Of a stretch of DNA of 64,000 nucleotides, positions 4,965 to 58,286 are shown one piece after another (position 1 is the first letter of the stretch; each line of letters starts with the position of its first letter). Origin of the DNA: Candidatus Brocadiia bacterium. GTDB taxonomy: Bacteria; Planctomycetota; MHYJ01; JACQXL01; JACQZI01. Both the position numbers and the translations under genes were made by a program. The stretch spans positions 8,170-72,169 of the forward strand of contig JAGVQN010000085.1 of NCBI GenBank assembly GCA_020051675.1, read 5' to 3'. A model generated the notes under the pieces. The model ran no database searches. It saw only the letters and a list, made by a program, of their open reading frames with translations, and was not told where the DNA came from.

Positions 4965-4976
4965 AAGGAGGAGTGT

Positions 4977-17235: not shown

Positions 17236-17296
17236 GGAGTTGCAGAAGATTACAAAGATGTTACATAATGTTACAGTAACCTTTTGTAACTTATAG

Positions 17297-17319: not shown

Positions 17320-17356
17320 TTATTAGGTAACATTTTATTTCACGAAAGGAGCAAAC

Positions 17357-18145: not shown

Positions 18146-18179
18146 CGGGTAATTATTCACCGCAGAGGGCACAAGAGAA

Positions 18180-18887
18180 TTATTTCTCTTCCTCTATTCT
18201 CCTAAAGAATTTTAGATGGTGAGTGACTTTATTATCTTTGAGGGAATAGATAAAATAACAAGGTCCGCCTGAACAGCTATGAGTATGTCCCCAAGCTTTA
18301 ACCAGTACTTCTGAAGAATTCGGTGACCAGCCGATGGCATCCATGTAATAATGGTCATAGGGATACTTGTCGTTATATGTATTGTTTTTCCATATATCTT
18401 TCGTAATATCAAAAAACATGTCAGATATATGTCCGTAAAGTCCAGTTCCGATTTCCGAAATAGTCCCATCTGTTTCATTTATCATAAAAATGCTTGTCGT
18501 AGCTAAATCACTTCCCGCATGGTCATTTATAATTATTTTGCGACTATCCGGCGACCATAATACATAACATGATCTTTTGTATTCATAAACCAATTGATCT
18601 ATGTGGTTAGTTTTTATATCCATAAGCCAGATTTGAAAGTCATCGGGATATTCTTTTATCGGATTAGGGTTTTCTTTTTGATAAAGTGTATAATGAGCGT
18701 CAGGTGATGTTATGCGTTGTTTTTCCATTTCACCCTCGTCCCTGAGAAGGAGAATGGTTTTGTTTATTTTATACTCATTAATCCATTCTAAACCTTTGGG
18801 TATTTCTGTTTCTGATGTGCGGCCTATGAAAATTACTGTTACAATAAAAAGAGTGCAAAATATGCAAAGTGTTAATAACTTCTTCAT
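18180..18887 (-). CDS. Membrane-anchored protein with TolB/PD40-like beta-propeller repeats.
   Basis: An N-terminal TM helix is present, along with WSPDS/WSPNS repeat motifs. The gene is very AT-rich relative to its neighbours. Confidence 0.5.
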   Translation of the reverse strand: MKKLLTLCIFCTLFIVTVIFIGRTSETEIPKGLEWINEYKINKTILLLRDEGEMEKQRITSPDAHYTLYQKENPNPIKEYPDDFQIWLMDIKTNHIDQLVYEYKRSCYVLWSPDSRKIIINDHAGSDLATTSIFMINETDGTISEIGTGLYGHISDMFFDITKDIWKNNTYNDKYPYDHYYMDAIGWSPNSSEVLVKAWGHTHSCSGGPCYFIYSLKDNKVTHHLKFFRRIEEEK

Positions 18888-18920
18888 AATTCACGCCTTC
18901 CTGTTTTCTTACAGAAAGAA

Positions 18921-34836: not shown

Positions 34837-35100
34837 GGTATGCAGATATTAGTAATAGGGTATGCAGATGTCAGTAATAGGGTATGCGGATGTTAGTAAT
34901 AGGGTATGCAGATATTAGTAATAGGGGATGCAGATATTAGTAATAGGGTATGTAGATGTTAGTAATAGGGTATGCAGATGTCAGTAATAGGGTATGCGGA
35001 TGTTAGTAATAGGGTATGCAGATATTAGTAATAGGGTATGTAGGTATTAGTAATAGGGTATGCAGATATTAGTAATAGGTAATGAGGATATTAGTAATAG
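34837..35100. repeat. Twelve tandem copies of a 22-bp unit with consensus GGTATGCAGATATTAGTAATAG. Each unit contains the palindrome TATTAgTAATA.
   Basis: Units begin at 34837, 34859, and so on up to 35079. Variants are confined to positions 7-14. Units 2-4 are identical to units 7-9, which is a higher-order repeat. Confidence 0.9.
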
Positions 35101-35152: not shown

Positions 35153-35184
35153 CTTCTTTATGTTGTCAATATCCCTTTGTTTTG

Positions 35185-35198
35185 TTACCAAACGGTAA
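35185..35198. promoter_or_regulatory. Palindrome TTACC-aaac-GGTAA, a candidate upstream activator site.
   Basis: It lies ~200 bp upstream of the sigma54 -24 element. Confidence 0.4.
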
Positions 35199-35271
35199 TT
35201 TTGTTACATTTCAGTAATAATAAAATCTGTAAACATTAATATATTAATTATTGACAAAAACGTTTCCTTTT

Positions 35272-35287
35272 GGTAACATTCATTACC
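35272..35287. promoter_or_regulatory. Palindrome GGTAA-cattca-TTACC, a candidate upstream activator site.
   Basis: It lies ~110 bp upstream of the sigma54 -24 element. Confidence 0.4.
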
Positions 35288-35383
35288 GTTTAGTAACGTA
35301 TAGATTTGTGTCTAACGCCTTTGTTTATAATGAGTTAGATATGATTAACTAATTAACTTAATTAACTAATAAATTTACTTACT

Positions 35384-35399
35384 TGGCACGCTTTTTGCT
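35384..35399 (+). promoter_or_regulatory. Sigma54 (RpoN) promoter: TTGGCACG-cttt-TTGCT.
   Basis: It matches the consensus YTGGCACG-N4-TTGCW exactly and sits ~50 nt upstream of the giant gene ATG. Confidence 0.75.
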
Positions 35400-35447: not shown

Positions 35448-38400
35448 ATGAAAAACAGCGCCCTATTATTAGCCTTTTTAGCCGTGATTATCCTCATTCC
35501 GTCAACCGTTTTTGCCTTTGAATCCGAGCCGCCCCCGATTGTCAAAAAGGCGCAGTTCGAATCGGTTAAAGACGGCGTTTGGAGCGACCAGAATACCTGG
35601 GATCCGATAGGCGTGCCCGATACCGGTGATACCGCGACCGTAAAGCATACCGTAACGATTAACGGCAATGTCAAATGCGGTAATGTTACGGTAAATGCAA
35701 CAAAAACCCTGACGATAATGGGTCCCGCTTCGCTTACTATTGATAGCGGTTCGCAGATTGTCAATAACGGGACGTTTGTGGTAAACGGCGCGGGCGGATT
35801 GGCAGAACTCACTTCAAACGGACTTGCAAGTTTTACGATAGCGGGTGCGAGCTGGAACGGCACCTGCGGATTTACTAATTTTTCCTATCCTTTTACCCTT
35901 AATACGACCCCTGCTACTTTCCAGGTCGGCAAATTCGGCAATCTTACTATCGGCGCTTTCACGGTTGGAAGTAACGTCAATCTTAGCGGTTATCTTATTT
36001 CAACCGGCCAGATTAACGTTATCTCCACTCTTAATATGGGCGGAAATTCTTTGACCGCCGGCGCCGGCATCTCGACCAGTTCCGGCAGCTGGATTACCGG
36101 CGGCGGTACCATCAACTGCAACGGCGGCATGTTTAATATTTCCGGGCGGGTGGATTTATCGCCCGGTTCGATTCTTAATATGCCCGGCGGCGCTTCGGCA
36201 AACGGGCAATACGGGATAAGCGTCTATGGAACCGGCTGCGTTTCTGCCACCGGCTCCGCGGGAAATTTTGTCTATATCAATAAATCAGGCACGTATTATC
36301 CGTATATTTATTTACAGGATGCCTCAAACTGCCTGTTTGATTATTGCTCTATCACCGGATTTGGCTCGTCTTCCGCCACTACAACCTCAGGTATATATGC
36401 GGCATCGGTAGATGGGAATGCCAGCCTTAGTATGGGCGCAGGGAATGAAGGATTAACCATTAAAAACTGCACCATCCGCGACGGAAATTATGGCGGTATC
36501 TGGCTCGCTACTTGTACCGGCAACATAATAAGCGCTAACACCATCTACAATTGCCCGGAATGGGGAATCAAGGTAGGAAACAGCCAGGCCGGTAGCAATA
36601 ATCATCAAATAGGTAATAATACTATTTATAATTCAACTTCAGGAACGAACGGATACGGGATAGGGTTGTACACTACAGCCGCCGATAATTGTTTTTCTTC
36701 TTTTCCGATTAGTAACACCACGATTTACAATTGCCGTTACGGGATTACCGCCACAGGTGTTAGCGGAACGGGCGCTAATACCGTGGAGCAGATTTTCAGG
36801 GATTGCAGCCTGGGAACGCTCGGGCAGAATTCTGTTGCCGATGTCGGCTTTGGAGTGAGTGTTACTAACTGCGGGCTTAGGCTGGAAAATTGCGTTCTGG
36901 CAAGCCCGACCGAAGTGGAAGCCACCAATATAGATTCTAACGACGACCGCATCGTTTCTTACAGGCACGATAATGTCCCGGGGTTGGTCAGGGTCTGGGG
37001 CGACTGGCGCCCGACCGACGCCGGACAGCTTATCCTGATAAGATACGATACGGCTTTGGTTGCCGGCGTGACCAACGATGCCAATATCCAGAAGATAGTT
37101 GAATTCGGGCCGTGCGCGGCGGCAATGGCGCCAGTCGGAGGCACTACGTATGGGACCAGGGGCGTCAGCCGTTTCAGGACCGGCACACTGCAAAACGGCG
37201 CCGGGATAGAATTCGTCGGCATCACCACGCCTAACTGGGCGCCGGTTTTAGTCCGTTCAGTCGGCGATAACACCTACTCTATTTTAATCGAAGGAAGCGG
37301 GCTAAAGGCCTGCAAGTTTTCCGCCTATGCCGCGGAATTCCAGAATATCAGCGGCACATTAATTTCTTCCACCGGATATCTTGCCCCTACTTCTGTTGGC
37401 GGTTATCTTTCACTGGATTACTGCACTTTTAAGAATACTTTTGCCGGCGCGACCCGGCACATTGCCCTGCAGGAAGGCGGTAATGTCATTACCCGCAGTT
37501 ACACGACATTTGATACCTCGGCGACGTATGATGTCCGGGTGGATAATAATACTAATATTACATTCACTAATTTTATCAATTCCCGTGCAAATACAGCGGA
37601 TGAAAACGAGCCAACTGGCGGGACAGTGGCATGGTCAAATCCGGGAAAGACCTATTACGCGGTTGCTACCTTTACGTGGGATAATCCGCTTACCTGGAGT
37701 TTAAGTCCCGGTGGCCCAAGCAATGTCGGACCGCCGACCATTAATGATAACGTGGTCATTACGGCGTATACCGTAACAATCTCTACCGCGCCCGGCACGG
37801 TTTCCTGCACGAACCTGACGGTCAGCGATGCCGGTGTGCTAAGATTCAACCCTACTGTTGCGGCCCGTTCATTGATAATAAAAAATGGCGGGATTATATC
37901 AAATACCGGCACGATTAATTTCCAGAGTAACGTGAATCCGGTGACCATTACGGCGCAAACCTTAACTAATCCAAGCATGGTGATATATAAAGGGAATGAT
38001 TTAACCTGGTTAGCCGGGTTAAACCTGGTTCTTGCGGGGATAGATTATCAGCGAGCGATGAATCCAAGCGCGGCCGTAGGTATTACTTTTAGCGGCAATA
38101 TGCAGACCCAGACCGTAACCGTCACGAATGACAGTAACCTGACGCTTGACGGCGGCGGGACTTCTATTTCCTGGACCGCGCTGGGCGATATATACGTCGG
38201 CACAGCCGCCACCGCCGGCACTTTGCAACTCAAGCCTGAAACCGGGCTCAAGATTCTATGCGGCTCTAACGGGCAATACGGCCTGATTGTGGATTCGCTG
38301 GGCACTTTGACCGCCACCGGAACAGCGGCCGGCGACCGCGACTGCCGGATTACCTCTGCGTCTTCTTTCCGCTCGTATATATATTGCATGGCAGGCTCGC

Positions 38401-41400: not shown

Positions 41401-44400
41401 GCCATCTCCATATCGTTAACGGCCAGAGCAAAACCATCGATGGTTGTTCATTTGACGATTCTAATACGGTCGGCAAAGATATCGACGTGTCCGACAACGG
41501 GGTCAACCCGACGATTATTACCTTTACTAACTATACCAATACCGCGCCCGGTTCAAAGGATGCGGAAAGCGGTAGCAGCCGGGCAATCTGGAAAAGCACC
41601 ATCGCCCTTTTTAACCCAGAAACAATAATGCCGGGGACGATCTATCAGGGCGATGCCAATGTCGGAATGTTAAAATTCAATGTCGCGCCTTCTTTGCCTG
41701 CCGGTGCCGTCTGCAGTGAAACCCTGCTCACTTATGTCGCCGTGACGCTGACCGGCGGAGGCGCTTTCAGCGATTCAGATATCAGCGCCGTCAAGATATA
41801 CCGGGATACCGATGCAAGCAATAGTTTTGACCCGACCAAAGACACATTAATTTCTACCCCAGTCTCATTCACCGGTTGGTATGTAAATATCCCCTTGGTC
41901 CCGGCGCAGGACGTTCTCACCGGCACCAATATGTTTTTTGTCGCGTATGACATATCAAGGACGGCCGGTCCGGTGACAATCGGCGCACGTTTAGTGGATA
42001 ATAATTATTTTACGGTGAGCGCTCCTCATGATAAAGCGGTTCTATCGCAGTTTACCGCAGGTCCCGTGGGGATTACGCCGGTAGACTGGAAATCCGACCT
42101 GCAATTAAGGAAAGATCCGGCCGACGGATGGACAGGTAACGATATTTATACCTTGGACGGGCAGAACGAAAATATCATTAGCAATACAGTCAACACCCTG
42201 GTCGCCTCATATTATATCAGGATAGAAAATGACGGCGGCTTGCTTGGTAACTTTTCTGTTACCGGCGATGCCGGCTCGGCAGGATGGTTCGTGACTTATT
42301 ACAGCGCTATCAGCGGCGATATAACTTCCGGTATAACAGGTCCGGGTATTTTATTGAATCTTGCTAATGCTGCAACGTGGGATTTTACCGTTGGTTTGGA
42401 ACCGCAGGGGCAGGTAACCGGCGCATCAAAGGCGCTGAAAATCTGGTCCAGGCCTAAAGATGAAGCGGCAACAACATTACAAGACTTGGTTAAATGCACT
42501 ACTTATATTTATTCCAATCGTTCTGACTTGGCGGTAAAAGCGCAAGGTGGCAGTTACTCGACGGACGACACCTTTGACCCGCCTACCGAACAGAAACTTT
42601 CCGCGACTATAAACAAGAATACCATGGTTACTTATTATGTCCGGATACAAAATGACGGTACGGCGAACGACCAAATCACCGTCACCGGCACATCAGCCGC
42701 TTCGCTCGGGACAGGCTGGACGGTAAGATACTACGACTCCGGCAATACGGATATCACCACCAACATGACTAATGGATTAGGGTGGCTTAGTCCTGTATTA
42801 ACTTCAACCGGCACGACGGAAATCCGTGTTGAAGCGACCGCGACCGATACCGCGGTTGCCGGCACATACACCATCATCGTATATGGGCAATGCAACGGGG
42901 CGCCATCCAGGCAAGACCAGGTTAAAATTGCTTTGACTGTCAATTCTGTTTATAAAGCTGATGCAATGGTCAAAAAAGGAACGGAAGACGATTCTCAATA
43001 CTTAACCGACAACATAGACGAAACCATCCCCGCCGCGCAGGTTAAAAACACCTCTATTAGTGTCGGCGGAATTGCTTCATATTATATTAAACTGCAAAAT
43101 GACGGCAACGTAACGGATAACTTCACCATAACCGGCACGAATGCCTCACAGGGCGTTACCGGGGGTACATGGTGGGTAACGTATTATTATGGAACGGTTG
43201 ATATAACCTCGGATGTAATCGCTAATAAATGGCTTTCCCCTCCGGTAGCCGTTGGCAGCAATATTGTTTTAACCGCGTATATATATAACCAAATCGGCGC
43301 CACCGGCAACGTTAAGGACGATTATCTTACCGTCATATCATATAACAATTCTGCCCAAAAAGACGCGGTAAAGATGATAACATCTTGCGGACAGCTCCAG
43401 CAGCCCGATGCGATGGTAAGCAATAATGCGGGGCAGGACGGAAATACGAATGAAACTTACGATACGACGCTTACCCCGACCGCGACCTCTCAGGTAATAA
43501 CGCAAACTGTTCCTTCTTATGTCGTTGTTCCCGGGTCAGAAGTAACCTATTATATTACACTGCAGAACGACGCTATTAATAACGACACCTTTTCCATCAC
43601 CGCGGCGTCCCCGACCGGCGCGGGAACAGGTTCAGGATGGCTCATAACGTATTACACGTATTCCACAATGACGGATATTACGGCAAATGTGCTCAATTAT
43701 GCCGGAGGGGGATACGGCACGCCGTCTATTATCGCTAACGGAGGCGCCATTACCATAACCGCCGTAGTTAGCTATAATTCTGCCCTGGTTGGGACGAACG
43801 TTACCAAAGAGATATATATATATGTAAACAGCGGCGCTAATGCAAGCAAGCGGGACGTGGTTAAATGCGTCGCCAAAACGGCCAATTACCAGCCCGACCT
43901 TTATTCTTCGGCATCAACAGGGGGTACATGGGTGACGGATAACACCTATAGCGCTACTCCGGAGACCCAGATGCAAACAAAGGTTTTTGATAACGGACAA
44001 ACTGTTACGTATTATTACAGGATACAAAATGACGGAACTTATGCCACCGGCGGCGCAAGCTATTCGATTACCGGAACCGATGGTGATGTCGGTTCGTGGA
44101 CAATTACTTATTACTATGACGGTGCGGTTGTTGCCAATGATATGCCTGATCCGTGGGAAGAAATAGATATTACAAACGGTTGGTTACCGGGAAACTTTAA
44201 CGTCGGCGAAACCAAGCAACTGATCGTTCTGATAACGGCGAAGAGTGCAGCCAGAGGAGCCACCGCTAATTTTGACATATACGCTACGCGTATAGAAACG
44301 GGTGAAACAGATACGGCAAGAATTAGAGCACAGGCGCCATCGCCTGATTTATGGATTAACAAAGATAATGGCGCGGTTTGGACAGGTAAGGATAGCTATG

Positions 44401-50400: not shown

Positions 50401-53400
50401 GCGCAAAGGATGTGGTGATGTGCTCTTCGGTTGTTTCGCACAGCAACAAGCCCGATGCCCTCTTGACAAAAGAAGGATACGGGGATACATCGGTTAAAGG
50501 AACGTATCAGTATAACGACGCGTATTATCCGCCGACCGGCCAGATTACATCAACGGCGATAGCCAATAACCAGGCTCTTACATATTATATCTGGATAGAA
50601 AACGACGGAAACACCAATGAAACATATCTTATTACCGGTTCTTCGCCGTCTTCCGGATGGTGGGTGACATATTATGAGGATGCTTCGGGCGTAACCGATA
50701 TTTCCGCGAATGTAAAAGCCGGCACATATCAGGCCGTTACTACCGGAGTGATAATGGAGCCATATTCCATCACAGGGTTAAAACGGGTGATAAGGATGGT
50801 GGTCACGGCTGATAATACCCTTAACGGGACAAACGCCGCGACCTTTGTGGTAAAAGCGACTGATTCAAGCTTAGCAACCGATACGGTCGGGGTGACATTT
50901 ACCGTTAATACGACTTACCAGGTTAATGCATCCATCGGGAGTGTTACCGGCGGTCCGTATACGGGAGAATCTGTTTATACCCCGTCGACAGCATTAGATC
51001 CGAACCAGGCGGTTTCCCGGACGGCTAATACCAATAAAATAGTTACTTATTATGTGAAAGTGGTTAATGAAGCGAACGTGACCGATACGATTACTTTAGC
51101 CGTCGCAGGTTCAGGGGCCGGATGGTGGATTACTTATTATGATCCGGCCAGCGCGAACATTACCGCTAATATGATAAGTTCCGGCTGGGCAACTTCGTTT
51201 ACCCGTAACCAGTCAAAGGAAATCAGGATTGAGATTACTCCTGACGGCTCGGTGATAGGCACGGCGATGCTGCCGGTAACCGTTACCGCGACTGCCTCAG
51301 GCGGCGTGGTTGATTCTGTCCTGGCGAAAACCACGGCGCAAAGGCCCGATGTGTTGATTAAGGGCAACGGTTACGGCGATGCGTCAGTCAAAGGGACGTA
51401 TACTTATAATGATATATACTCGCCGACGAGCCAGATTACATCAACAGTCATTACCAATAACCAGGTGCTTACATATTATATATGGATAGAGAATGACGGA
51501 AACGCCAATGAAACAGCATATGCCGTTACAGGCACTTCATCCTACGGCGGATGGATTGTCTCTTATTATGATGGCGCCAGCGGAGAGGATGACAGTATTA
51601 CGGCAACTGTAGGACTTGGCACATATAATCCCGGCAATGCCGGAACAATGGAGCCGTATTCGGTAACAGGATGGAAACGCGTCATCCGTATGCGCGTAAC
51701 GGCCACAAACAACCTGGCGGGCAGCGCAGCTGGGTCGTTTATCGCGCGCGTATCTGACGCAAGCGGAAATACGGATACCGTCGGCGTGAATACTACGGTG
51801 GTTACGGATTATAAGGTCAATACGTCTGTCAAGACCGAATCCGGCTCTTATACGGGAGACGTTAAGTATACGCCTCCGGATGCTTTGGACCCTGACCAGA
51901 CCGTGACCAATACTGTTGCCAGCGGTTCTGTTCTGACATATTATGCCAAAGTAGTTAACGAAGGGAACGTTACGGACACCCTCTCGGTAACAGGAACCGG
52001 CAGCTCGGCCGGGTGGTGGGTGAGTTATTACACGGTGCCGGGCGGCGCGGATATTACCGCTAATATCACAAATCCGGCAGTTGGATGGTCAACTTCATTT
52101 ATCCGTAACGAGATAAAAGAAGTCAAGATTCTTGTCCAAGCGGATACCAACGGGCCGGACGGCGGAAACAGCAAGGCAATCAGCATTACTGCCTGGTCTA
52201 CGCTTTCCACAACCAAGTATGATTCGGGCTTGATTAAGACAACCGTCGTGACAACACGTAAACCCGATCTCTTAATCAGCCTGGATAATGTTGTTTTCAG
52301 CGGCGACGGAGATTACGAAGACGAAATCGCGCCGATTTCCGCCAACCAGACCAAAACCGGCTCCGGCGAGAATAACGAGGTGATAACTTATTACGTCAAG
52401 CTGCAGAACGAAGGCAACCTGGGAGAAACATATACTGTTTCAATGACCTTGCCCGGAAGCGGCTGGGTAATAACATTCTATGATAATACGGATACGATAC
52501 GCTCGCTCCCATGGGTAAGCGGAACTATTACCAAAACCGATTCCATCACGGTTAAAATACTGGTGATGCCGGTCGGCAAAAATAACGGCGACAGCGGCGA
52601 TTTGATTATCTATGCCAAATCAACCGATGATATTACCAAGGTTGATGCGGTTGATGCCAAGACAACGGTAAGCGCGGCGAATATCCTTTATCCGCAGGAT
52701 TATAAACAGGTCGGGACGACCCCGGTATTCATGGGCCAGGCGGCTCCGGGGGTTACGGTCGAACTGTGGGATATTACCGGCGGATTACCCGGGACGCAGG
52801 TAGTTACTAGCACTGCCGACGTAAATGGTTATTGGAGAATGAAAGTGACCGGCGCTTTAAGCGTAGGCGGTCATACCTTTAAAACGATTGCCGGCGGAGT
52901 AGAGGGCCAGCCCAGGCCGATTACTGTCGAGGCGGTCGCTCCGGCAACTGTGCCGGTAATAAATTCTCCTGGAGAGAATGATTATATTAAGGATACGAAT
53001 AAACCTTTGATAACAGGAAATGCCGGCGTGGCAAATGCCGGACAGGTTATAACCGCTACGGTTAATATCAATACGACCGCAACCGAGTTATATGACATGA
53101 ATATCGGCACCGCCACGGTACTGGGCGACGGTTCGTATACGATAAATCTTACAAGACCGTTACCCAGGGGGACGCGCCAGATTGCCCTGATTTGTAACGG
53201 AGTATTGAGCGATTTAAGGACGGTCATTCTGGTTGACCCGATCGGCGTACTCTATGATGATGTAACCAACCAGCCGATTGACGGAATGGAGGTAAGCCTG
53301 TGGAGATCGACGACCGACGGGGCGTTTACCTGGACTTTGTGCCCGGTGGGCGGACTGGCCGGCGAAATCGGCGGTCCGGTCGGCGTCACTAACCCGCAAA

Positions 53401-56400
53401 CTTCAGGCTGGACCGGCGTGGCAGGCCAGTACCAGTTCCTCTTAGGACAGCCTGCGGTCGGTACGGCTTATAATTATAAAATAGTGGTTACGAATTCTTC
53501 CGGGTATTCTTTCCCGTCGAGCGTTGCTTCTTATCAGGCGATTACGTCTACGATAATCGGCTCGGCCGGAACGGCAAGCATCCCGGCGTTTATCGACCTC
53601 TTCCCGGGCGACCCGGTGACCAGGACTATTTATGTCGATGATACGACTTATTTAGGGGTAGCGCCGTCGGTGGCGAGAAACCTCTCGATCGGCGGCTATT
53701 TCGAAATGGATAATTCGGAACTTGATTTAATATACGCGGATATACCGCTCTCGCCGGCGGCGACTCTATTGCGGATTACCAAGGCGTCAAACAAGCCGGA
53801 GGTTTCTATCGGAGATATCCTGACCTATGAAATCAAGATTATTAACAGTAACGCCTCGCCGGTTAAGAATGTTTATATCAGGGATATCATGCCGGCCGGC
53901 TTTAAGTATATTGACGGCTCGACCATGATAGATAATACGACCAAGCTGGCTGATCCCACAGGCGGCCGGACAAGAATCTTTAACGTCGGCACGGTAGCGG
54001 CGCAATCCACAAAAATAATACGTTACCAGTTGGTGGTCGGAACAGCCGTGACCTTCGGCGAGTATAAGAATACCGCCCAGGCCGAGTATGCCGGCGGCGT
54101 GGTGATATCAAACAAGTCCCAGGTAAAGGTCAGGGTAATCCCGGACCCGGTGTTTGATTATGCCACGATAATCGGCAAGGTGTTTAACGATTATGACGGA
54201 AACGGAGTCCAGGGTGAAAACGAACCTGGTATTGACAGGGTAAAGATCATAACCGAAGACGGGATTATGGTAGAAACCGACCAGTACGGCAAATACCACA
54301 TCGCCGGATTAAAACCCAAGACCAAGCTTTTGAAGGTGGTCGAGAGCTCATTGCCGATAGGCGCGGAATTCACCACGCCCAATCCGGTCATGGTGCGCTT
54401 TACTTTAGGCGGCCATCTGGAAAAGGTTAATTTCGGATTGAAGCTCGCCCAGTCAGCCGATTCCATGGAAAGGCGCATTGTAAAGGTGAATATAAAGGTA
54501 GTCACCACGCCCGAAGGGAATCCCCAGGTATCGGTTGCCGGGGCTCCGGTCAGGATGATGTTCCCGCCGAAGAGGGAAGGCGCCACGGAGAAACGCGTCA
54601 GGGTGCAGATCGGGTACAGCATGTTAGCGCTTGACGAAAACGGCAATTACAACGGCGAATACGTACTGCTTCCGGGCGAGACGACCTTAAAGATCTGGGC
54701 GGAAAACAGGTGGGGATACGAGAAGGAAGAGCGCCATGCGGTTTCACTGCCTTCGCTGGAAGTAAAAATCTACCGCGAAGACGACCGTCCCGCATTGACG
54801 CCCGAACTGGGATTGGTCGTGGCACCTGAAATACTGAATATAAAAGCCGGCCGCCTGGCCGAGGCCGCCCGGTTTAAGATAATCACCAACTACGGGCAGT
54901 TTATCAATAAATGGAAACTGGTAATATACGAACCTGTCCGCGGCGGGGCATGGTTGCCGCAGGAAAAGCCTGATGGTTTGATGGCTTCCGCGGAAAGCAC
55001 AGAACGAACGGACGCTTTGATTGCCGAAGAATTCGCCGAAGCCGAAGGCAAAGCGCCGGCCGGGTACCAGGTATTCTACGAAAGGACCGGCACCGGCAAG
55101 GATATCGATAAAGATATCATCTGGGAAGGCCGTTCGACAGACCGGGGCAAGATGGTTGATATGGATAAAGCCTATAAATACAAATTATTTGTCGAAGGCA
55201 GAGACGGCAATGTCGATATGACCAGGGAAGGCCAGCTGATTGTGGTTTCCTTCTGGGCGGAGAAACTCAGGAAGGTATTCGGGATAGATGTTCCGCTGGT
55301 CGGAGGGGCAAAGCTTACACCGGCGATCGGGCCTATCCAGACAGCCTCCGGGACAAACATAAACACATCCGGCAAGGTCTATTCAATCAGCGGCAAGACC
55401 GACCCCAAAAATAAGATTGTTATTTCAACCCCGGGCTCCAAAGTCGCGGGCGTTGAGGTTGAGCCGTTTGAAGACGGCAGCTTCGAAACAGAAGTCTATG
55501 TTTCGGCGACCGAAGGCAGGATGTTGATAGAAGCGATTACGCCCGATAAACAGCGGCGCGTCCAGAGGTCGGAAAATATCAAGGCGCCCGAAAAGAGGGA
55601 AGAAGGCTACTTAGTCCTGAACGGGTTGATTGATACGCAGTTCGGCTCGAACAACGCTTCCGGCGCGCTTGATGCCACCAGGAACGATAAGACCATGCGC
55701 GACGGCTCTTACGGGACAGGCCGGGCAGCGCTATTCCTTAAGGCGCGGCTGGGCGAATACCAGCTGACTTCGTCCTTTGACAGCCAGCGCGAAGACAAAG
55801 AATTATTCAAGTTTATCGATCCGGATAAATTCTACCCGCTCTATGGAGACAGCTCGGTCCGGACCGATGTGGCGGATAATACCCAGGGAATGTTCTACGT
55901 CAAGGTGGAGCGCGAACAATCAAGCGCTATGTGGGGCAATTACTCAACCGGTTTCAGCGGGACGGAGCTTGCCCAGTATAACCGCGGCTTCTACGGGGCA
56001 AAGATACAATTGGCCAAGCCGTTTTTCTCGACTACCAATGCGACTTTATTCGTGGCGGAAGCCAAGCAATTGGCCAGCCATAACGAAATCAGGGCGACCG
56101 GCGGCTCATTGTATTACTTGAAAGACAGGTACTTAATGGAAGGCAGCGAAAAGATTGCAATTGAAGTGCGCGATAAAGTCAACGGCATGACCATCTCTTC
56201 CTCCGTGATGAGTGCCGGCGCGGATTATGAAATAGATTACAAGAACGGCCGTATCATATTCTATCAGCCGATCGCTTCGGTCGCGTCCAGCAACACGATA
56301 ATCTCTACGGAACTCCTGGACGGTAACCATGTTTATATCGTGGTGGATTACGAATACGATGCTTCAAGGCATTCGACAAAGAACGCCAGCGGCTTGAGGA

Positions 56401-58286
56401 TAACCCAGCCGGTCGGGAAGAGTATCGATTTAGGCCTGACTTATGTTACCGAAGAAAAACCATTATCGGATTACAGCCTGATGGGAACGGATTTCAAAGT
56501 CAGATTGCCCCGAAGCCTCGGGAATATCGGCTTTGAATATGCCTCAAGCGAATCGGAAAGCATCCCGGGGTTTATTTCCTACGACGGCGGTTTTGATTTC
56601 GCGACGCTGCCCACCTCCCAGAGCGCAGACGGGGCGGCTTATAAGCTGAACCTCAACTTTGACCTGGGGCTGGCGTTTACCAAAGTGGCTAACGAAGTCA
56701 TGTTTGCCGGATATTTCCAGAATATAGAAAAAGGATTTTCTTCGGGACAGAGCATATTCCAGCAGGGGACGACCAAATTCGGGTTTACGACCACGGCGAA
56801 GCTAACCCAGCGTGATAATTTACTGATCAGGTTTGACGGGCAGCAGCTGGATGCCTCCGGCGGCAACACCGCTTCGGCAACCCAAGTCGGGGCGGACTCC
56901 AGCCAGTCCTTGAATATTCAGGTAACGCATGACCAGGCGCCGTTAAGGCTGACCGGGTCGTATCAGTACCAGGCGACCGGCAAGCCGATATACAACTCGC
57001 TTATGCGCGATGAAGGCTCGCAGATATTGGCGGTGAGGGCGGATTATCAGGTCAACAAAGAATGGACGCTCTCTGTAGAACAGCAGGGGGTCCTGGCCGG
57101 GAAACCCAATAACCAGACGACCCTGGGCGGCGCTTTAAAGCTGACCGAAAAAGAGCGGCTTGACCTGTCGACCACCATGGGCACGCTCGGTAATGCGGTC
57201 CAGGCGGGGATAACCAGCCAGGTAAGCGATAAGCACGCGCTCTATACCAAGTATCAGGTGAGCGAAGACAAAGCCGGCAATAAAGCCTACTCGACGATAT
57301 TCGGGGAAAGGAAACAGGTTTCCAAAGATGTCGGCATATACCGTGAAGAAAGATTCAGCGGCAGAAATACTGCCGAGGATACCCAGTACAGCGGCTTAAT
57401 GGGATTGGATTATATCCTGAACCAGTATTGGTCGATGGGCGCTAATTACGAAAGAAGCCAGGTTGATAATATCCACGGCACGCTGACTTCAAGGGATGTC
57501 GCGTCGATCGGTCTTTCCTATAACTCGCATCCGAGGGAGAAAGACCCGAGCCAGGTAAAAGGATATATGCGGTTTAATACCCGTCTGGAGTATAGGCTAG
57601 ACAAAGGCGCGCCGGACAGGAATTCAATCCTGACCGCCAACAAGCTCTATTACCAGTTTAACGGAGACGCATCCAGTATCGTCAAGATGAATTACAGCAA
57701 GACAAATAACGATACCACCGGAGAGGTGGAAGCCGAATTTACGGAAGTGAGCGTTGGCATGGCGTATCGCCCGATAAACAACGACAAATACAACCTGTTA
57801 ACCAAGATTACTTACCAGACAGACCGCACTCCGCGGAATCTGGAGCCGATGGTCTCCAACCTGGAAAGCGCGATGATACTCTCCCTGGAAGGCGCGGTGG
57901 ATTTGAATCCAAAGATGCAGGCCCTGGGCAAGCTCGCGTATAAACAGGCGACCGAAGAGACCGGCAACCACGGCTCGCTGACCAGCAGCACTTACTTGAT
58001 TGCGCCGCGGTTTAACTATAAGATAGAATCCGCCAGCAAGATAATCAATAACTGGATAGTCGGCGTGGAATACCGGATGCTCGTGGCACAGCTCGCGGAA
58101 GACCAGAAGTCCGGATTTGTCCTGGAGTTTGAAAAAGAACTGACCAGGTACAATAGCCCGGTCGGCCCGATGGGCGTCAACCTGGGATTCGGCTATAACT
58201 TCACCGATTTCACGGATGACCTATCCGTCTATGACGATGATTACAGCGTAAAAGGATTCTTTATCCGCTTAAGCACGAAGTTCTAA
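35448..58286 (+). CDS. Giant (7,612-aa) cell-surface protein. It has a signal peptide, three paralogous right-handed beta-helix modules, about 23 tandem CARDB/DUF11-like Ig-fold repeats, a classical DUF11 conserved-repeat domain, SdrD-B/Cna-B-like domains, and a C-terminal outer-membrane beta-barrel (autotransporter-like).
   Basis: A single stop-free 22.8-kb ORF. The signal peptide is MKNSALLLAFLAVIILIPSTVFA. PbH1-type beta-helix repeats are present (NCTIRDGNYGGIWL...IYNCPEWGIKV). The recurring repeat motif is TYYxxIQNDGN...GWWxTYY. An SdrD-B-like segment reads GKVFNDYDGNGVQGENEPG. The last ~890 aa show amphipathic beta-strand periodicity and end in ...FFIRLSTKF. Confidence 0.9.
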   Translation: MKNSALLLAFLAVIILIPSTVFAFESEPPPIVKKAQFESVKDGVWSDQNTWDPIGVPDTGDTATVKHTVTINGNVKCGNVTVNATKTLTIMGPASLTIDSGSQIVNNGTFVVNGAGGLAELTSNGLASFTIAGASWNGTCGFTNFSYPFTLNTTPATFQVGKFGNLTIGAFTVGSNVNLSGYLISTGQINVISTLNMGGNSLTAGAGISTSSGSWITGGGTINCNGGMFNISGRVDLSPGSILNMPGGASANGQYGISVYGTGCVSATGSAGNFVYINKSGTYYPYIYLQDASNCLFDYCSITGFGSSSATTTSGIYAASVDGNASLSMGAGNEGLTIKNCTIRDGNYGGIWLATCTGNIISANTIYNCPEWGIKVGNSQAGSNNHQIGNNTIYNSTSGTNGYGIGLYTTAADNCFSSFPISNTTIYNCRYGITATGVSGTGANTVEQIFRDCSLGTLGQNSVADVGFGVSVTNCGLRLENCVLASPTEVEATNIDSNDDRIVSYRHDNVPGLVRVWGDWRPTDAGQLILIRYDTALVAGVTNDANIQKIVEFGPCAAAMAPVGGTTYGTRGVSRFRTGTLQNGAGIEFVGITTPNWAPVLVRSVGDNTYSILIEGSGLKACKFSAYAAEFQNISGTLISSTGYLAPTSVGGYLSLDYCTFKNTFAGATRHIALQEGGNVITRSYTTFDTSATYDVRVDNNTNITFTNFINSRANTADENEPTGGTVAWSNPGKTYYAVATFTWDNPLTWSLSPGGPSNVGPPTINDNVVITAYTVTISTAPGTVSCTNLTVSDAGVLRFNPTVAARSLIIKNGGIISNTGTINFQSNVNPVTITAQTLTNPSMVIYKGNDLTWLAGLNLVLAGIDYQRAMNPSAAVGITFSGNMQTQTVTVTNDSNLTLDGGGTSISWTALGDIYVGTAATAGTLQLKPETGLKILCGSNGQYGLIVDSLGTLTATGTAAGDRDCRITSASSFRSYIYCMAGSLSKFQNCEIYELGYNQGSPYTKDGLFVENVNNAVAGQGLTIDSCNLHHSYAGFMSNAITNASITNCNVYNNSWVGVYLWASSFAGNTFNTVTNSEFYNNGWGLLVGYSNKNTFTNNTVHNNYSGGLYENCCGDNTWTGGSSYGNTMYGVTIINTQYNGVYTPSTFTNIQFGNPTANSIGDVRLSTTASDITYAVFQNCLFNSTNEVVWLNPTAVKAGSYLISYRHDQVAGAIRIFGDYVRSAGTEDWNFTDPYTGTALDANTAKTITFMAGPSGLNGGTSRFRLETGATLDMASGNTTPVNITSVKASAGLYYNMILTGTVNANCYKFENVGYDAANSNYGLEIRSPAANITLTNGTYANYKSDSQFLYFNNTATFGDNLTISGCSFDNSAWYDVWTNIGAAQYITFTNYSNDYPNTKDYEQQGYADWLVTGAWTTAKDGNWWEPQTWNNASVPPDWTDVTINHAVNVTGTVKTGNITINSGGLGLNGAAQNTTLQVLAGMTITNNASISVTNDTNTVKLTSSGVGFPDYFIFTGNPINLNSKSMTIGLCQSQSVITVPNLSVLTIDNDLRTITTTIQAGGELKHQTSGKEWSASGNISVSGILRLGNNTLTRINCLSVDGQYGIEVNAGGYFEALGTSADARDCQISNGGPSTYKPYIYLKDLSGTLLRYVTVSYVGTSTATSKFGIYAQAVDGQNPAQGVEGLLIEACNIYNCYTGIVLDGCSGNRIARDGAGNASWVHDNYDGIRIMGGTNLTTIEKTYVYSQTNIALILDGGTITQTLSDMWISKNKYGLGLYQSGTDVPRDMVINSVITSSTTADIYCQPGTAHELILRNTALSSTNEIDPAALPSVVGAWIISQMHDQIPGRTVIWGDFSSSALGNPLKFNYADASYPGAGDANTRKSLLFGPCSIVARDNESLINIDSNSVLQLKGGMGLAQATQVTTYTGATRFRSIEVYGTIDANNVIISGHDSAGVRVNASGTIADFANITFTNSGTGGARHLHIVNGQSKTIDGCSFDDSNTVGKDIDVSDNGVNPTIITFTNYTNTAPGSKDAESGSSRAIWKSTIALFNPETIMPGTIYQGDANVGMLKFNVAPSLPAGAVCSETLLTYVAVTLTGGGAFSDSDISAVKIYRDTDASNSFDPTKDTLISTPVSFTGWYVNIPLVPAQDVLTGTNMFFVAYDISRTAGPVTIGARLVDNNYFTVSAPHDKAVLSQFTAGPVGITPVDWKSDLQLRKDPADGWTGNDIYTLDGQNENIISNTVNTLVASYYIRIENDGGLLGNFSVTGDAGSAGWFVTYYSAISGDITSGITGPGILLNLANAATWDFTVGLEPQGQVTGASKALKIWSRPKDEAATTLQDLVKCTTYIYSNRSDLAVKAQGGSYSTDDTFDPPTEQKLSATINKNTMVTYYVRIQNDGTANDQITVTGTSAASLGTGWTVRYYDSGNTDITTNMTNGLGWLSPVLTSTGTTEIRVEATATDTAVAGTYTIIVYGQCNGAPSRQDQVKIALTVNSVYKADAMVKKGTEDDSQYLTDNIDETIPAAQVKNTSISVGGIASYYIKLQNDGNVTDNFTITGTNASQGVTGGTWWVTYYYGTVDITSDVIANKWLSPPVAVGSNIVLTAYIYNQIGATGNVKDDYLTVISYNNSAQKDAVKMITSCGQLQQPDAMVSNNAGQDGNTNETYDTTLTPTATSQVITQTVPSYVVVPGSEVTYYITLQNDAINNDTFSITAASPTGAGTGSGWLITYYTYSTMTDITANVLNYAGGGYGTPSIIANGGAITITAVVSYNSALVGTNVTKEIYIYVNSGANASKRDVVKCVAKTANYQPDLYSSASTGGTWVTDNTYSATPETQMQTKVFDNGQTVTYYYRIQNDGTYATGGASYSITGTDGDVGSWTITYYYDGAVVANDMPDPWEEIDITNGWLPGNFNVGETKQLIVLITAKSAARGATANFDIYATRIETGETDTARIRAQAPSPDLWINKDNGAVWTGKDSYAPTAQITSTLTAGSTVVTYYFTLENETSLADTFSMTASGTSGAGWFITYYDQSAAPGNDITAQITTPNTGWLAGNVNAASTKGIRAEVEYNAYVASVNQTKSITIYAFSTCLPAGTPGFYDAVAGQVTSASYKPDMLAKKASDAYSFDNIWNSDSTVQNLSATVSNNQTVTYYYKLENEGTYTATSYSITGHSGNIGNWWITYYTDPDGDGGQIDENPISITMPGYATVSLTPTGVAYLRVNIYVTALEAPGQSRVFKIYATKTDTNEADSAQITAQVPGTDALITFNYDPDVTSSTWKTNNVYETAIPNSTQIVSRTTEANTAVSYYIMIQNDGGALDTISITGISSAQLGAGWWITYYDSFDSVNDITGQVIGGGYPIINLGATLTATMRCEVCYDNAAYIGQTKDVYIVVNSTTIAGSSDVINAQIVTANYKPDLLSKPAGGGYTGSDGYSSDSANLNQATNINNYQLLTYYYQIQNDGNYNSPGYTITGGGNAAKWWITYYDDGALLENISDDTPVTGTNGAGLVTGAGYYTGAITQGQSKYLRVNVYVENDSAAASQTFRIWATKTDTGETDAGQIVATVTNSYTVDAMYQKATGGSYANTDNVYETPAPTGDATQNQIVTRAYPSAGNPVTYFVRLENEGNTDTTYTVTGAVTTYSLTGSWTISCYNSTTVFNGSTDITTDIAGAGWVSPAIDRSPTYGGVTNYKDITVVFIPSIDLTGAFSCTTVARARSNLGTAPADSVIVTTLMSTEYKPDAEINNGGGYTGNNVWNTDGSGANNQTKTTDRNVAATYKVQLGNDGNINETFTMTGTSSAQLGTGWTVSYYSDAGYLTEVTNDVVITGYATVAVGLGATSEVLWIKVTPDNTVAGNSTVTATVTAISSNDNSKKDAVSMATTVNNAYQVDAQINQSGWTGDNQYYPPTDQIASAGFNNKQTLTYYIKIQNEGNTNETIKLTGEGTPAGDKWIVSYYDNSGAGRTDISQNVITTLNYTVALTRYNQAGYQTTDTQIWAEITALTYTAGAETFDTSVWAIVQGGTGNEKSDKVIARATVNNIYQADSMVKLGTEDDGSYYYDGDYAWDLTGSPYYETMPPTNQAKSANTDNVTPASYYIKIQNDGNTTENITVTGTGTWTAGTYGALGGWGTVTYYDDTPAVPSLAGGGADVTNSVLNGTYTKSLLRFAGESTPDYRLIRVLVHPYNTAASDSTYDVYAIANSTAGGATKLDAIKTLSQVKSNYRPDLIVKRGGYGDPDYLRDGPLYYPDAVGDQVKSQTLTNRPSAATVTYYVKVQQDGILNDDTISIVGNASAGGWWVSYYEIANEAEIPGSAITNEVTVDGKAYALTSGTSQLVRIIVTADINVAGGNVFTATLTATSNKQPAKQDRILAVTTNNTYYMTDAWISATDSSSYTGDGVNDYTPPPALAAHKKALSVFDFAPTTYYIKVENDGNVADTITVQGNTGNADWVVSYYEDTNGIYNAADPDITALVIGTGWAQSITAKNTKQVRMWITPQPTALSGTIYTSVVSLASTGNPAAGAKDHVQGTTTVYVTSYRSDIMVKQADTSYASTSAYETTPSSQVRSQFVGRGQYITYYLKIQNDGNAGDTLSLTGTGADGQGWFISYYEDNGVLETYENGVDIDISSSVSGSGYSWALANAETKNIIIRMLPLWGVASSTSKTVYVGVTSWANAGQDICQITSTAQAGYQPDNSIRTSAEVSFTGDGQYAVPYYGVGNSGWFGIEQLKSQTITETGRTVTYYVTVQNDSNTNDSLTVTGTAGDGTDWFVTYYNETGGANITANVINGTWTAGPLAQNEADSRIIRVEMTARTGLAGTSSKTLDIKTYSVQDGTKYDTVRAQATVQSFSKPNTLVKEDADGAYLGSGDYNATAINQTRGPISVANSAVVTYYTQIANDGNIVEGYSVTAVKTAGWFVTFYQAPDGDDNDSSDDTIINYASSTFTWSTGNLAIGGVKYLRINAEPSNQYGSVPQYLYITASSTSSAKDVVMCSSVVSHSNKPDALLTKEGYGDTSVKGTYQYNDAYYPPTGQITSTAIANNQALTYYIWIENDGNTNETYLITGSSPSSGWWVTYYEDASGVTDISANVKAGTYQAVTTGVIMEPYSITGLKRVIRMVVTADNTLNGTNAATFVVKATDSSLATDTVGVTFTVNTTYQVNASIGSVTGGPYTGESVYTPSTALDPNQAVSRTANTNKIVTYYVKVVNEANVTDTITLAVAGSGAGWWITYYDPASANITANMISSGWATSFTRNQSKEIRIEITPDGSVIGTAMLPVTVTATASGGVVDSVLAKTTAQRPDVLIKGNGYGDASVKGTYTYNDIYSPTSQITSTVITNNQVLTYYIWIENDGNANETAYAVTGTSSYGGWIVSYYDGASGEDDSITATVGLGTYNPGNAGTMEPYSVTGWKRVIRMRVTATNNLAGSAAGSFIARVSDASGNTDTVGVNTTVVTDYKVNTSVKTESGSYTGDVKYTPPDALDPDQTVTNTVASGSVLTYYAKVVNEGNVTDTLSVTGTGSSAGWWVSYYTVPGGADITANITNPAVGWSTSFIRNEIKEVKILVQADTNGPDGGNSKAISITAWSTLSTTKYDSGLIKTTVVTTRKPDLLISLDNVVFSGDGDYEDEIAPISANQTKTGSGENNEVITYYVKLQNEGNLGETYTVSMTLPGSGWVITFYDNTDTIRSLPWVSGTITKTDSITVKILVMPVGKNNGDSGDLIIYAKSTDDITKVDAVDAKTTVSAANILYPQDYKQVGTTPVFMGQAAPGVTVELWDITGGLPGTQVVTSTADVNGYWRMKVTGALSVGGHTFKTIAGGVEGQPRPITVEAVAPATVPVINSPGENDYIKDTNKPLITGNAGVANAGQVITATVNINTTATELYDMNIGTATVLGDGSYTINLTRPLPRGTRQIALICNGVLSDLRTVILVDPIGVLYDDVTNQPIDGMEVSLWRSTTDGAFTWTLCPVGGLAGEIGGPVGVTNPQTSGWTGVAGQYQFLLGQPAVGTAYNYKIVVTNSSGYSFPSSVASYQAITSTIIGSAGTASIPAFIDLFPGDPVTRTIYVDDTTYLGVAPSVARNLSIGGYFEMDNSELDLIYADIPLSPAATLLRITKASNKPEVSIGDILTYEIKIINSNASPVKNVYIRDIMPAGFKYIDGSTMIDNTTKLADPTGGRTRIFNVGTVAAQSTKIIRYQLVVGTAVTFGEYKNTAQAEYAGGVVISNKSQVKVRVIPDPVFDYATIIGKVFNDYDGNGVQGENEPGIDRVKIITEDGIMVETDQYGKYHIAGLKPKTKLLKVVESSLPIGAEFTTPNPVMVRFTLGGHLEKVNFGLKLAQSADSMERRIVKVNIKVVTTPEGNPQVSVAGAPVRMMFPPKREGATEKRVRVQIGYSMLALDENGNYNGEYVLLPGETTLKIWAENRWGYEKEERHAVSLPSLEVKIYREDDRPALTPELGLVVAPEILNIKAGRLAEAARFKIITNYGQFINKWKLVIYEPVRGGAWLPQEKPDGLMASAESTERTDALIAEEFAEAEGKAPAGYQVFYERTGTGKDIDKDIIWEGRSTDRGKMVDMDKAYKYKLFVEGRDGNVDMTREGQLIVVSFWAEKLRKVFGIDVPLVGGAKLTPAIGPIQTASGTNINTSGKVYSISGKTDPKNKIVISTPGSKVAGVEVEPFEDGSFETEVYVSATEGRMLIEAITPDKQRRVQRSENIKAPEKREEGYLVLNGLIDTQFGSNNASGALDATRNDKTMRDGSYGTGRAALFLKARLGEYQLTSSFDSQREDKELFKFIDPDKFYPLYGDSSVRTDVADNTQGMFYVKVEREQSSAMWGNYSTGFSGTELAQYNRGFYGAKIQLAKPFFSTTNATLFVAEAKQLASHNEIRATGGSLYYLKDRYLMEGSEKIAIEVRDKVNGMTISSSVMSAGADYEIDYKNGRIIFYQPIASVASSNTIISTELLDGNHVYIVVDYEYDASRHSTKNASGLRITQPVGKSIDLGLTYVTEEKPLSDYSLMGTDFKVRLPRSLGNIGFEYASSESESIPGFISYDGGFDFATLPTSQSADGAAYKLNLNFDLGLAFTKVANEVMFAGYFQNIEKGFSSGQSIFQQGTTKFGFTTTAKLTQRDNLLIRFDGQQLDASGGNTASATQVGADSSQSLNIQVTHDQAPLRLTGSYQYQATGKPIYNSLMRDEGSQILAVRADYQVNKEWTLSVEQQGVLAGKPNNQTTLGGALKLTEKERLDLSTTMGTLGNAVQAGITSQVSDKHALYTKYQVSEDKAGNKAYSTIFGERKQVSKDVGIYREERFSGRNTAEDTQYSGLMGLDYILNQYWSMGANYERSQVDNIHGTLTSRDVASIGLSYNSHPREKDPSQVKGYMRFNTRLEYRLDKGAPDRNSILTANKLYYQFNGDASSIVKMNYSKTNNDTTGEVEAEFTEVSVGMAYRPINNDKYNLLTKITYQTDRTPRNLEPMVSNLESAMILSLEGAVDLNPKMQALGKLAYKQATEETGNHGSLTSSTYLIAPRFNYKIESASKIINNWIVGVEYRMLVAQLAEDQKSGFVLEFEKELTRYNSPVGPMGVNLGFGYNFTDFTDDLSVYDDDYSVKGFFIRLSTKF
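50448..52260 (+). repeat. Recent in-frame tandem duplication (~894-906 nt, 2 copies) inside the giant gene. Each copy encodes a pair of DUF11-like repeats.
   Basis: The copy starting KPDALLTKEGYGDTSVKGTYQYND...YYIWIENDGNTNE matches the copy starting RPDVLIKGNGYGDASVKGTYTYND...YYIWIENDGNANE with high identity. Confidence 0.75.

Follow-up and report, generated by a model that had tools for sequence, protein, structure and literature searches.

The 64,000-nucleotide (64-kb) stretch of DNA analysed here, which we call the window, contains a single gene of 22.8 kb whose product of 7,612 amino acids (aa) starts with a Sec-type signal peptide and ends in a predicted giant outer-membrane (OM) beta-barrel. 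A preliminary description of this giant gene had proposed a modular surface protein that exports and anchors itself. We set out the architecture of the protein, the family to which its barrel belongs, and the evidence bearing on its route to the cell surface. The gene and the parts of its product are as follows.

35448..58286, plus strand: giant gene, a single ATG-to-stop open reading frame (ORF) of 7,612 codons
35448..35516, plus strand: signal peptide, aa 1-23, Sec-type, likely cut after VFA (read from the translation)
35517..41582, plus strand: three paralogous beta-helix modules of ~630-710 aa each (Pfam, NCBIfam, BLASTP)
41583..42080, plus strand: ~165-aa domain between the putative heads and the stalk, aa 2046-2211
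42081..52661, plus strand: 23 tandem immunoglobulin (Ig)-like repeats of ~150 aa each, aa 2212-5738 (hidden Markov model (HMM) built from the protein itself)
52662..53768, plus strand: aa 5739-6107, tentatively a pair of Big-like Ig domains plus one prealbumin/Cna-B-like domain, each weakly supported
53769..54383, plus strand: junction pair, DUF11/CLIPPER at aa 6108-6213 and SdrD_B-like at aa 6244-6312 (Pfam, NCBIfam)
54384..55607, plus strand: pre-barrel region, aa 6313-6720 (conserved columns in alignment A1)
55608..58283, plus strand: predicted giant OM beta-barrel domain, 892 aa, aa 6721-7612 (AlphaFold2, family homology)
56094-56324, plus strand: conserved 77-aa mini-domain, aa 6883-6959, inserted between predicted barrel strands 8 and 9
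58284..58286, plus strand: stop codon

The giant gene is one intact ORF. It spans 22,839 nt with one stop only, and the longest ORF in any other frame within it is 184 aa; an ORF scan reproduced exactly the coordinates and length reported earlier, along with the single unbroken frame among stop-riddled ones. The N-terminus, MKNSALLLAFLAVIILIPSTVFA|FE, appears to show the n/h/c layout of a Sec leader, in agreement with the signal peptide first proposed, and the chain closes with ...GFFIRLSTKF, its last residue being Phe.

The metagenomic source, the long tandem-repeat region and the fact that the only contig with an orthologue begins mid-repeat raise the question of whether this ORF is real or the product of a chimeric assembly or a collapsed repeat array. 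We consider such an artefact very improbable. The repeats are divergent (16-61% identical at the protein level), long near-identical DNA repeats are absent, and the DNA-level matches that recur, around a TYY..QNDGN motif, are short and degenerate. GC content is even along the gene (0.48-0.53) and the frame is unbroken over 22.8 kb. A recorded 111,827-nt contig encodes an identical 7,612-aa product under the label 'uncharacterized repeat protein (TIGR01451 family)', and an independent metagenome contig encodes an orthologue, P0125, that is colinear with the last ~4,180 aa of the giant protein (4,183 aa). Further family members of 4,000-7,400 aa exist. Together, the divergent repeats, the identical record and the colinear orthologue argue against an assembly artefact. 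P0125, from an unrelated metagenome (ENA ERZ928008), is the closest relative in hand, with a barrel 48% identical to that of the window protein, and it is colinear with that protein all the way from the repeats to the final residue. Its contig (L081 1-130) starts mid-repeat, with stop codons just upstream; the 5' end is truncated or misassembled and does not confirm the N-terminal half of the window gene.

With 79 homologues as the alignment, AlphaFold2 modelled the C-terminal 892 aa (6721-7612) as entirely beta (predicted local-distance difference score (pLDDT) 85.4, predicted template-modelling score (pTM) 0.83). The DSSP string of this model contains 42 strands of 7-19 residues each, joined by mostly short turns, which suggests about 38-42 strands, putatively closed into a single barrel. 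Family-averaged hydrophobicity alternates along most of the strands, and an aromatic residue is conserved at the C-terminus (Phe7612 in the window protein; Phe, Tyr or Trp in relatives). The earlier proposal of a ~890-aa C-terminal domain with alternating strands and a terminal Phe is thus well supported. The only structural neighbours found with Foldseek are the largest OM barrels known, namely SlpA, PapC/FimD, MtrB, LptD and SprA, at template-modelling (TM) scores of ~0.2 and, for SprA, an E-value of 8e-8. Neither the domain itself nor the family profile matched a PDB sequence, and the domain has no match in Pfam or NCBIfam. By comparison, SprA, with 36 strands, has been called the largest known single-chain barrel (10.64898/2026.03.07.710327), and three predicted 38-strand barrels are noted briefly for Deinococcus (PMC9388160).

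Between strands 8 and 9 of the model lies a 77-residue insertion with five short strands. This mini-domain is the most conserved stretch of the family (TGGSLYYL...GSE...RD...DYEIDY..GRI), with invariant TGG..Y...S...DY..G positions in alignments A1 and A3; the window protein reads ATGGSLYYL...ADYEIDYKNGRI. A mini-domain profile found nothing significant in PDB, a single match to a designed propeller being spurious.

The barrel defines a large family. An exhaustive HMMER scan of 1.84 billion representatives returned 2,592 proteins at E<=0.001 and 2,052 at E<=1e-10, the resulting family size of ~2,000 being a count of clusters at 50% identity. A homology search with the barrel domain gave 498 matches, the best 120 of which have E-values of 4e-237 to 6e-85 and mostly 90-99% query coverage. 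Among species-representative genomes, at least 578 loci carry the family, and they are spread over Planctomycetota, Omnitrophota, Nitrospirota, Acidobacteriota, Alpha-, Beta-, Gamma- and Epsilonproteobacteria and the fusobacterial genera Propionigenium and Psychrilyobacter. Among the carriers available in culture are Kangiella, Leucothrix arctica, Rivihabitans pingtungensis, Methylobacillus methanolivorans and Propionigenium maris. The architecture had been described as rare and as characteristic of lineages such as Omnitrophota or the Planctomycetes-Verrucomicrobia-Chlamydiae (PVC) superphylum. Rarity does not hold, given 2,052 representatives at E<=1e-10 and the recurrence of members of 4,000-7,400 aa. 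Nor does confinement to those lineages, as many phyla carry the family, but the placement of the host itself within the PVC group was right, the protein ThrS assigning it to Planctomycetota.

Family members differ greatly in what precedes the barrel. The N-terminal parts range from <100 to >6,500 aa; of the best 150 members, 22 are longer than 3,000 aa. Large examples have 4,183, 4,913, 5,096, 5,136 and 7,402 aa, and in every one read the barrel ends no more than ~130 aa from the C-terminus. Most listed matches align to within a few residues of the protein end, some rows representing a partial best stretch; some ORFs, among them P0165, extend ~130 aa beyond the barrel match. A Rhodothermales megaprotein of similar size (P0249, 7,402 aa; P0262, 7,308 aa) shares the C-terminal barrel and is built through most of its length from a ~115-aa repeat with acidic, D-rich motifs; by reading, two candidate OmpA-like stretches lie ahead of the barrel.

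Full-text literature searches found no paper describing the barrel family and no published model or structure of it. In being very long, repeat-rich and envelope-targeted, the window protein resembles the giant proteins of Omnitrophota and Planctomycetota, among which huge DUF11-containing proteins are a recognised group. The giants surveyed there have alpha-helical anchors or are dockerin-type or SecA-containing, and none of the surveys mentions the C-terminal barrel family (10.1101/2023.11.21.568195; PMC11573180; 10.64898/2026.06.07.730766); one of these three states that no giant outer-membrane barrels were found.

The relationship between the barrel and the long N-terminal part becomes clearer when loci are compared. 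Gene neighbourhoods were compared for 80 barrel loci. At about 27 of these, a same-strand gene of 1,000-2,976 aa precedes the barrel gene (1,170-1,400 aa), mostly with an overlap of 1 or 4 nt. These split loci are mostly proteobacterial and fusobacterial (for example L065 813-12682, L080 2049-12715, L071, L073, L075, L076, L062, L048 and L057). Most of the split-pair products inspected have a hydrophobic leader of their own, two upstream ORFs lacking one as called. The upstream protein is made of DUF11, DUF7933 and SdrD_B repeats. Five of eight end in DUF11-SdrD_B, one more has SdrD_B followed by OmpA, and C-terminal OmpA is present in three of the eight. The barrel protein of the pair opens with a leader and an OmpA peptidoglycan-binding domain.

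The break between the split genes coincides with the DUF11-SdrD_B pair, which lies at aa 6108-6312 of the window protein; we accordingly read the window gene as an adhesin gene fused to its barrel gene. In other phyla, two translationally coupled genes encode the same components separately, an adhesin-like protein that ends in DUF11-SdrD_B and the barrel protein. Fused members share a membrane-proximal order of DUF11, SdrD_B, often OmpA, then FlgD_ig-like and Ig-like domains and the barrel, and the DUF11-SdrD_B junction ahead of the barrel is also found in the fused relatives P0004, P0016, P0028, P0125 and P0249. Apart from the adhesin-like upstream gene, the 80 loci revealed no conserved neighbour of the barrel gene. 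A large ORF lies directly downstream of it in L005, L006, L010, L033, L045, L053, L060 and L074 (six Omnitrophota, one Planctomycetales and one Candidatus Elulimicrobium). These ORFs reach ~2,200 aa, the N-terminal part of that in L005 appears highly charged and coiled-coil-like, and they may encode a lineage-specific partner.

In the window protein, the junction pair itself is well defined on its DUF11 side. DUF11 (PF01345) scores 41-42 bits against a cut-off of 24.6 and TIGR01451 scores 48 bits, so the single DUF11 domain noted earlier stands above the Pfam threshold at aa 6108-6213. In fibrillar adhesins, DUF11/CLIPPER serves as a stalk domain with an isopeptide bond; one such adhesin is Gram-negative and has an OmpA-like anchor at its C-terminus (PMC12617251). 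K6112, D6146 and N6208 form a candidate isopeptide triad, spaced 34/62 compared with 33/58 in 9IFR (PMC12617251). SdrD_B gives a single match, at aa 6244-6312, with 28-29.2 bits against a cut-off of 29.7. Of the two SdrD-B/Cna-B-like domains first described, this one is retained as SdrD_B-like, just below threshold, and the other, around aa 5930-6100, lacks model support. Upstream of the pair, in aa 5739-6107, Big_6 (E 0.0017) and Big_13 (E 0.02) match below their cut-offs, and the counterpart region of relatives matches CarboxypepD_reg and SpaA.

Between the pair and the barrel, the pre-barrel region contains conserved beta-rich domains and an acidic insertion at about aa 6500-6545. Its final Ig-like domain aligns with the Glucodextran_B domain of P0042 (residues 562-611, BLASTP E 0.001). 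Pfam gave no match at E<=0.1 in aa 6313-6720 and, unlike many relatives, the window protein has no OmpA domain here. This region had been taken for a charged linker; the acidic stretch is present, as an insertion, but the region is partly conserved among homologues and is not a plain linker.

In the stalk, a self-built HMM delimited exactly 23 contiguous repeats, each at E 1e-24 to 1e-41, with the signature YxPD...TYYxxxQNDGN...GWxVTYY...DIT. Mean pairwise identity among them is 28%. AlphaFold2 modelled one repeat, with the other repeats as the alignment, as an 8-strand beta-sandwich (pLDDT 92.3). Its PDB neighbours in Foldseek are Ig-like domains at TM 0.4-0.5, including GH123 N-terminal domains, PapD-like domains, FixG_C, staphylococcal FnBPA, SdrE and ClfB, and complement MG domains. 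The tandem ~150-aa Ig-like repeats anticipated in the preliminary description, there numbered about 23, are thus confirmed in number and, by the model of one repeat, in fold. Weak DUF11 matches occur in 6 of the 29 repeats scanned, together with a few CARDB and NEW3 matches, which makes the repeats distant members of the DUF11/CARDB class. With three repeats as queries, a word-indexed search of 5.8 billion clusters found only 3 proteins; the repeat is therefore either rare or too divergent for a word index. Among the barrel-family proteins in hand, this repeat type is found only in P0125, in 15 copies. Repeats R19-R22 (50439-52238) record a recent two-unit duplication, R19 and R21 being 61% identical and R20 and R22 46%.

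N-terminal to the stalk, the three beta-helix modules (aa ~24-735, 736-1415 and 1416-2045) are mutually 27% identical over their full length (pairwise BLASTP, E 4e-23 to 5e-36). They match Pfam Beta_helix in five stretches (63.9 bits), NosD (39.5 bits) and TIGR03804, and every module begins with a W..(T)W..P..D.V.I motif. These matches, with the paralogy, substantiate the three right-handed beta-helix modules of ~680 aa described at the outset. We regard the modules as the likely distal head of the protein. Module 2 has no significant relative among PDB sequences, a BLASTP comparison of this region with the beta-helix-like modules of P0165 gave nothing significant, and a scan of metagenome contigs with module 1 for orthologues of the 5' end found nothing. 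The ~165-aa domain that follows (aa 2046-2211) has no Pfam match and is weakly similar (E 8e-6) to a repeated domain of the barrel-family protein P0128.

How such a protein is arranged in the envelope depends first on the barrel. Barrels assembled by BAM, the beta-barrel assembly machinery, have both ends in the periplasm, and an N-terminal extension is periplasmic by default, a point that was not considered in the preliminary description. With an even strand count and both barrel ends periplasmic, the pre-barrel domains would therefore be periplasmic, matching the position of OmpA in relatives. Since the barrel start and the relatives' OmpA would be on this side, surface display would need passage through the barrel lumen. 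By strand-number/radius geometry, a ~40-strand barrel would have a lumen several nm wide, and folded Ig-like domains could pass. A surface location is suggested by the domain types, viewed alongside the description of CLIPPER adhesins (PMC12617251).

We therefore favour, with a probability of roughly 55%, a surface fibre or adhesin that is exported by Sec, fused to its own OM barrel anchor and probably threaded through that barrel. On this reading the window protein is a self-anchoring surface adhesin and a large member of a widespread giant-barrel family. BAM would insert the C-terminal domain into the outer membrane, a step proposed only from the C-terminal Phe and the barrel-type structural neighbours. 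The first barrel strand would begin in the periplasm, and the ~6,700-aa N-terminal part would pass through the lumen of the barrel it carries, probably one domain at a time. Domains close to the membrane would remain in the periplasm, where many relatives place peptidoglycan-binding OmpA, and the 77-aa mini-domain, in a would-be periplasmic turn, may gate the pore like the plug of a pilus usher. Outside, the Ig-like repeats would form a ~100-nm stalk presenting the three beta-helix heads, whose probable ligand is carbohydrate or another surface. This role for the heads is a guess, because no relative of them was detected in other family members and the window protein has no OmpA. Transcription would probably depend on sigma-54 and an enhancer-binding protein.

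Several points limit this reading or weigh against it. The topology is drawn from the DSSP string of a model and from search scores. Mean-field direct coupling analysis (307 family sequences, effective number (Neff) 195, reduced alphabet) was aimed at the pairing of strand 1 with strand 42, and its positive control failed, adjacent strands in the middle of the domain not rising above the non-adjacent background. No energy source or chaperone was identified for moving 6,700 aa through a barrel. The beta-helix heads have no detectable relative in the other family members in hand, and the sigma-54 site is a consensus match only. Finally, OmpA upstream of the barrel in many relatives would fit an N-terminal part that is wholly periplasmic.

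This last point leads to the main rival, that the protein is a scaffold inside the periplasm or connects the outer membrane to the wall, similar to SlpA or OmpM, with the Ig array as a spacer or scaffold in an enlarged planctomycetal periplasm. It has the default topology of a C-terminal BAM-assembled barrel on its side, and many relatives carry OmpA, either after SdrD_B and ahead of the barrel or where the barrel protein begins. Counter to this, 23 Ig-like domains and three beta-helix modules would be several times longer than the width of a periplasm; extracellular adhesins are where beta-helix, DUF11/CLIPPER and SdrD_B domains typically occur (PMC12617251); and wall-binding domains, whether OmpA, SLH or another type, are absent from the window protein. 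Moreover, some of the split upstream proteins are adhesin-like and end in OmpA, which suggests that only the C-terminal end is periplasmic. We therefore judge a scaffold unlikely. The likeness to SlpA of Deinococcus radiodurans, a 30-strand barrel (PMC9388160), and to OmpM is also limited. Unlike them, the window protein lacks SLH, a coiled coil and sequence similarity, its N-terminal part is adhesin-like and ~25 times longer, and the wall-binding domain of its relatives is of the OmpA type. Membership of the SlpA/OmpM group was rejected, as Pfam found no SLH match and the region ahead of the barrel is beta-rich.

Alternatively, the barrel may be an anchor or pore only, with the N-terminal part exported by a separate machine, of type II or another kind, and the lumen carrying something else. 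We think this improbable. A chain joined to a periplasmic barrel start must still cross the membrane, and a separate secretin would trap it; the 80 loci, too, offer no conserved neighbour other than the adhesin-like gene. Arguing for such an arrangement, the window encodes no energy source or export partner, self-export is less obvious for family members with short N-terminal parts of ~100-300 aa, and porin models match relatives weakly.

A classical type V system is an extremely unlikely explanation. The window protein does share with the type Va autotransporters (pertactin, AIDA-I, Ag43) a Sec leader, an N-terminal beta-helix passenger, a C-terminal barrel ending in an aromatic residue, here Phe, and possibly self-export and anchoring. 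However, its barrel has 892 aa and ~42 predicted strands compared with ~280 aa and 12, its passenger is mostly Ig-like, and folded domains (OmpA in relatives) lie between passenger and barrel. The Autotransporter model PF03797 had no match at E<=0.01 in the last 1,912 aa. The long linker helix expected ahead of such a barrel is also missing: the DSSP string shows no helix before the first strand, model residues 1-17 being of low confidence, and the preceding 400 aa are beta-rich. A passenger of a two-partner (type Vb) system was likewise rejected, as neither the giant protein nor any window ORF scanned contains two-partner secretion (TPS), POTRA or ShlB-type domains. The phrase 'autotransporter fashion' used earlier thus survives as an analogy for the way the protein functions and does not hold as family membership.

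Self-export through a giant barrel invites comparison with other systems. SprA, the type 9 translocon and a Foldseek match, is also a giant single-chain barrel, in principle wide enough for folded domains. The window barrel differs in having no sequence relation to SprA, no nearby type 9 secretion system (T9SS) genes and no C-terminal-domain sorting logic, and in having its putative substrate fused or encoded next to it. The ushers FimD and PapC have 24 strands and need a chaperone and separate pilins, unlike the window protein, which has no Usher match in Pfam. A chaperone-usher system was rejected, as neither Usher, PapC_N or PapC_C matches nor a chaperone gene were found; the modelled likeness would be at the fold level only, and the mini-domain may be analogous to the usher plug.

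The N-terminal part has parallels in the CLIPPER adhesins, such as B9T28_05395 of Acinetobacter silvestris (PMC12617251). They too have a head, an Ig stalk with the DUF11 Lys-Asp-Asn triad and a C-terminal end held in the envelope, and the upstream proteins of split operons have the same layout, some with C-terminal OmpA. They differ in that PMC12617251 names no route across the outer membrane, whereas the adhesins described here come with a giant barrel, either in the same chain or from an adjacent gene; in the window protein, moreover, the 23 stalk repeats are only remote DUF11 relatives.

It is possible, although we hold the idea tentatively and think it rather doubtful, that the family represents a new class of OM export and anchoring system. 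Such a system would have a ~40-strand barrel at least the size of SprA, thread pre-folded and possibly isopeptide-locked adhesins, carry an usher-like plug and exist in fused and split forms. If true, this would be an undescribed secretion route spread over many phyla, with an 'autotransporter-like' fused form and a 'two-partner-like' split form. To our knowledge, passage of very long Ig-like fibrillar adhesins across the outer membrane is understood for few systems, namely type I, type V and chaperone-usher. The export route is left open in surveys of DUF11/CLIPPER adhesins and of giant bacterial proteins, and the locus described here, together with its split counterparts, genetically links such adhesins to one barrel family. 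This link is a hypothesis that can be tested in tractable cultured organisms.

Around the giant gene, the window contains the following features.

12631-14205, minus strand: sigma-54-dependent activator (NifA/NtrC-like, 524 aa), the sole such regulator seen in the window, 21 kb from the giant gene
34837..35100, plus strand: 12 tandem copies of the 22-nt unit GGTATGCAGATATTAGTAATAG (Tandem Repeats Finder: period 22, 12.0 copies, 90% matches, score 409)
35184-35199 and 35282-35297, plus strand: dyad pair GTTACCAAACGGTAAT / ATTACCGTTTAGTAAC (inverted repeat I2, 16 nt, 94% complementary)
35384..35399, plus strand: perfect match to the sigma-54 (RpoN) promoter consensus TGGCAC-N5-TTGCT (TGGCACGCTTTTTGCT), 49 nt before the ATG
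58625-59881, minus strand: amidohydrolase gene, convergent, next downstream

The genes flanking the giant gene are housekeeping genes. A terminator-like hairpin follows the gene upstream and the gene downstream is convergent, and the giant gene thus stands alone as a transcription unit. The pattern TGGCACNNNNNTTGCW has its sole match in the 64 kb, counting both strands, at the putative promoter (0.02 expected; 2 of 100 shuffles matched). The dyads, ~90-200 nt upstream of that site, are candidate sites for an enhancer-binding protein, as inferred from their sequence and position. The 22-nt array lies in the 780-nt intergenic region upstream of the giant gene and may be regulatory; an exact-match scan of metagenome contigs with a 23-nt stretch of this repeat found nothing. 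None of the window ORFs scanned encodes a type I secretion system (T1SS) or TpsB component, in keeping with the earlier statement that no T1SS or TPS partner is present.

The host is, judging from the ThrS sequence (9055-10899), an uncultured Planctomycetota bacterium. ThrS is 92%, 77% and 75% identical to proteins of Planctomycetes/Planctomycetota metagenome-assembled genomes (MAGs), and it shares 66% identity with its counterpart in a Candidatus Brocadiia MAG; the taxonomic check by thrS suggested in the preliminary description thus falls within its PVC guess. Elsewhere in the window, the ORFs at 61203-62537 (minus strand, 444 aa) and 18180-18887 (minus strand, 235 aa) had no match in Pfam, the sole library scanned for them, and the ORF at 6508-7761 (minus strand, 417 aa) had none in NCBIfam, likewise the sole library scanned. 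Genes of anaerobic acyl-CoA metabolism lie at 928-6011 and 15931-20219 and include a CoA-transferase-GNAT fusion, an ADP-forming acyl-CoA ligase, a BzdO-like reductase/dehydratase subunit with its activator ATPase, and a LarA-like lactate racemase. At 14324-15661 there is a YfmF-like gene associated with EF-P modification.

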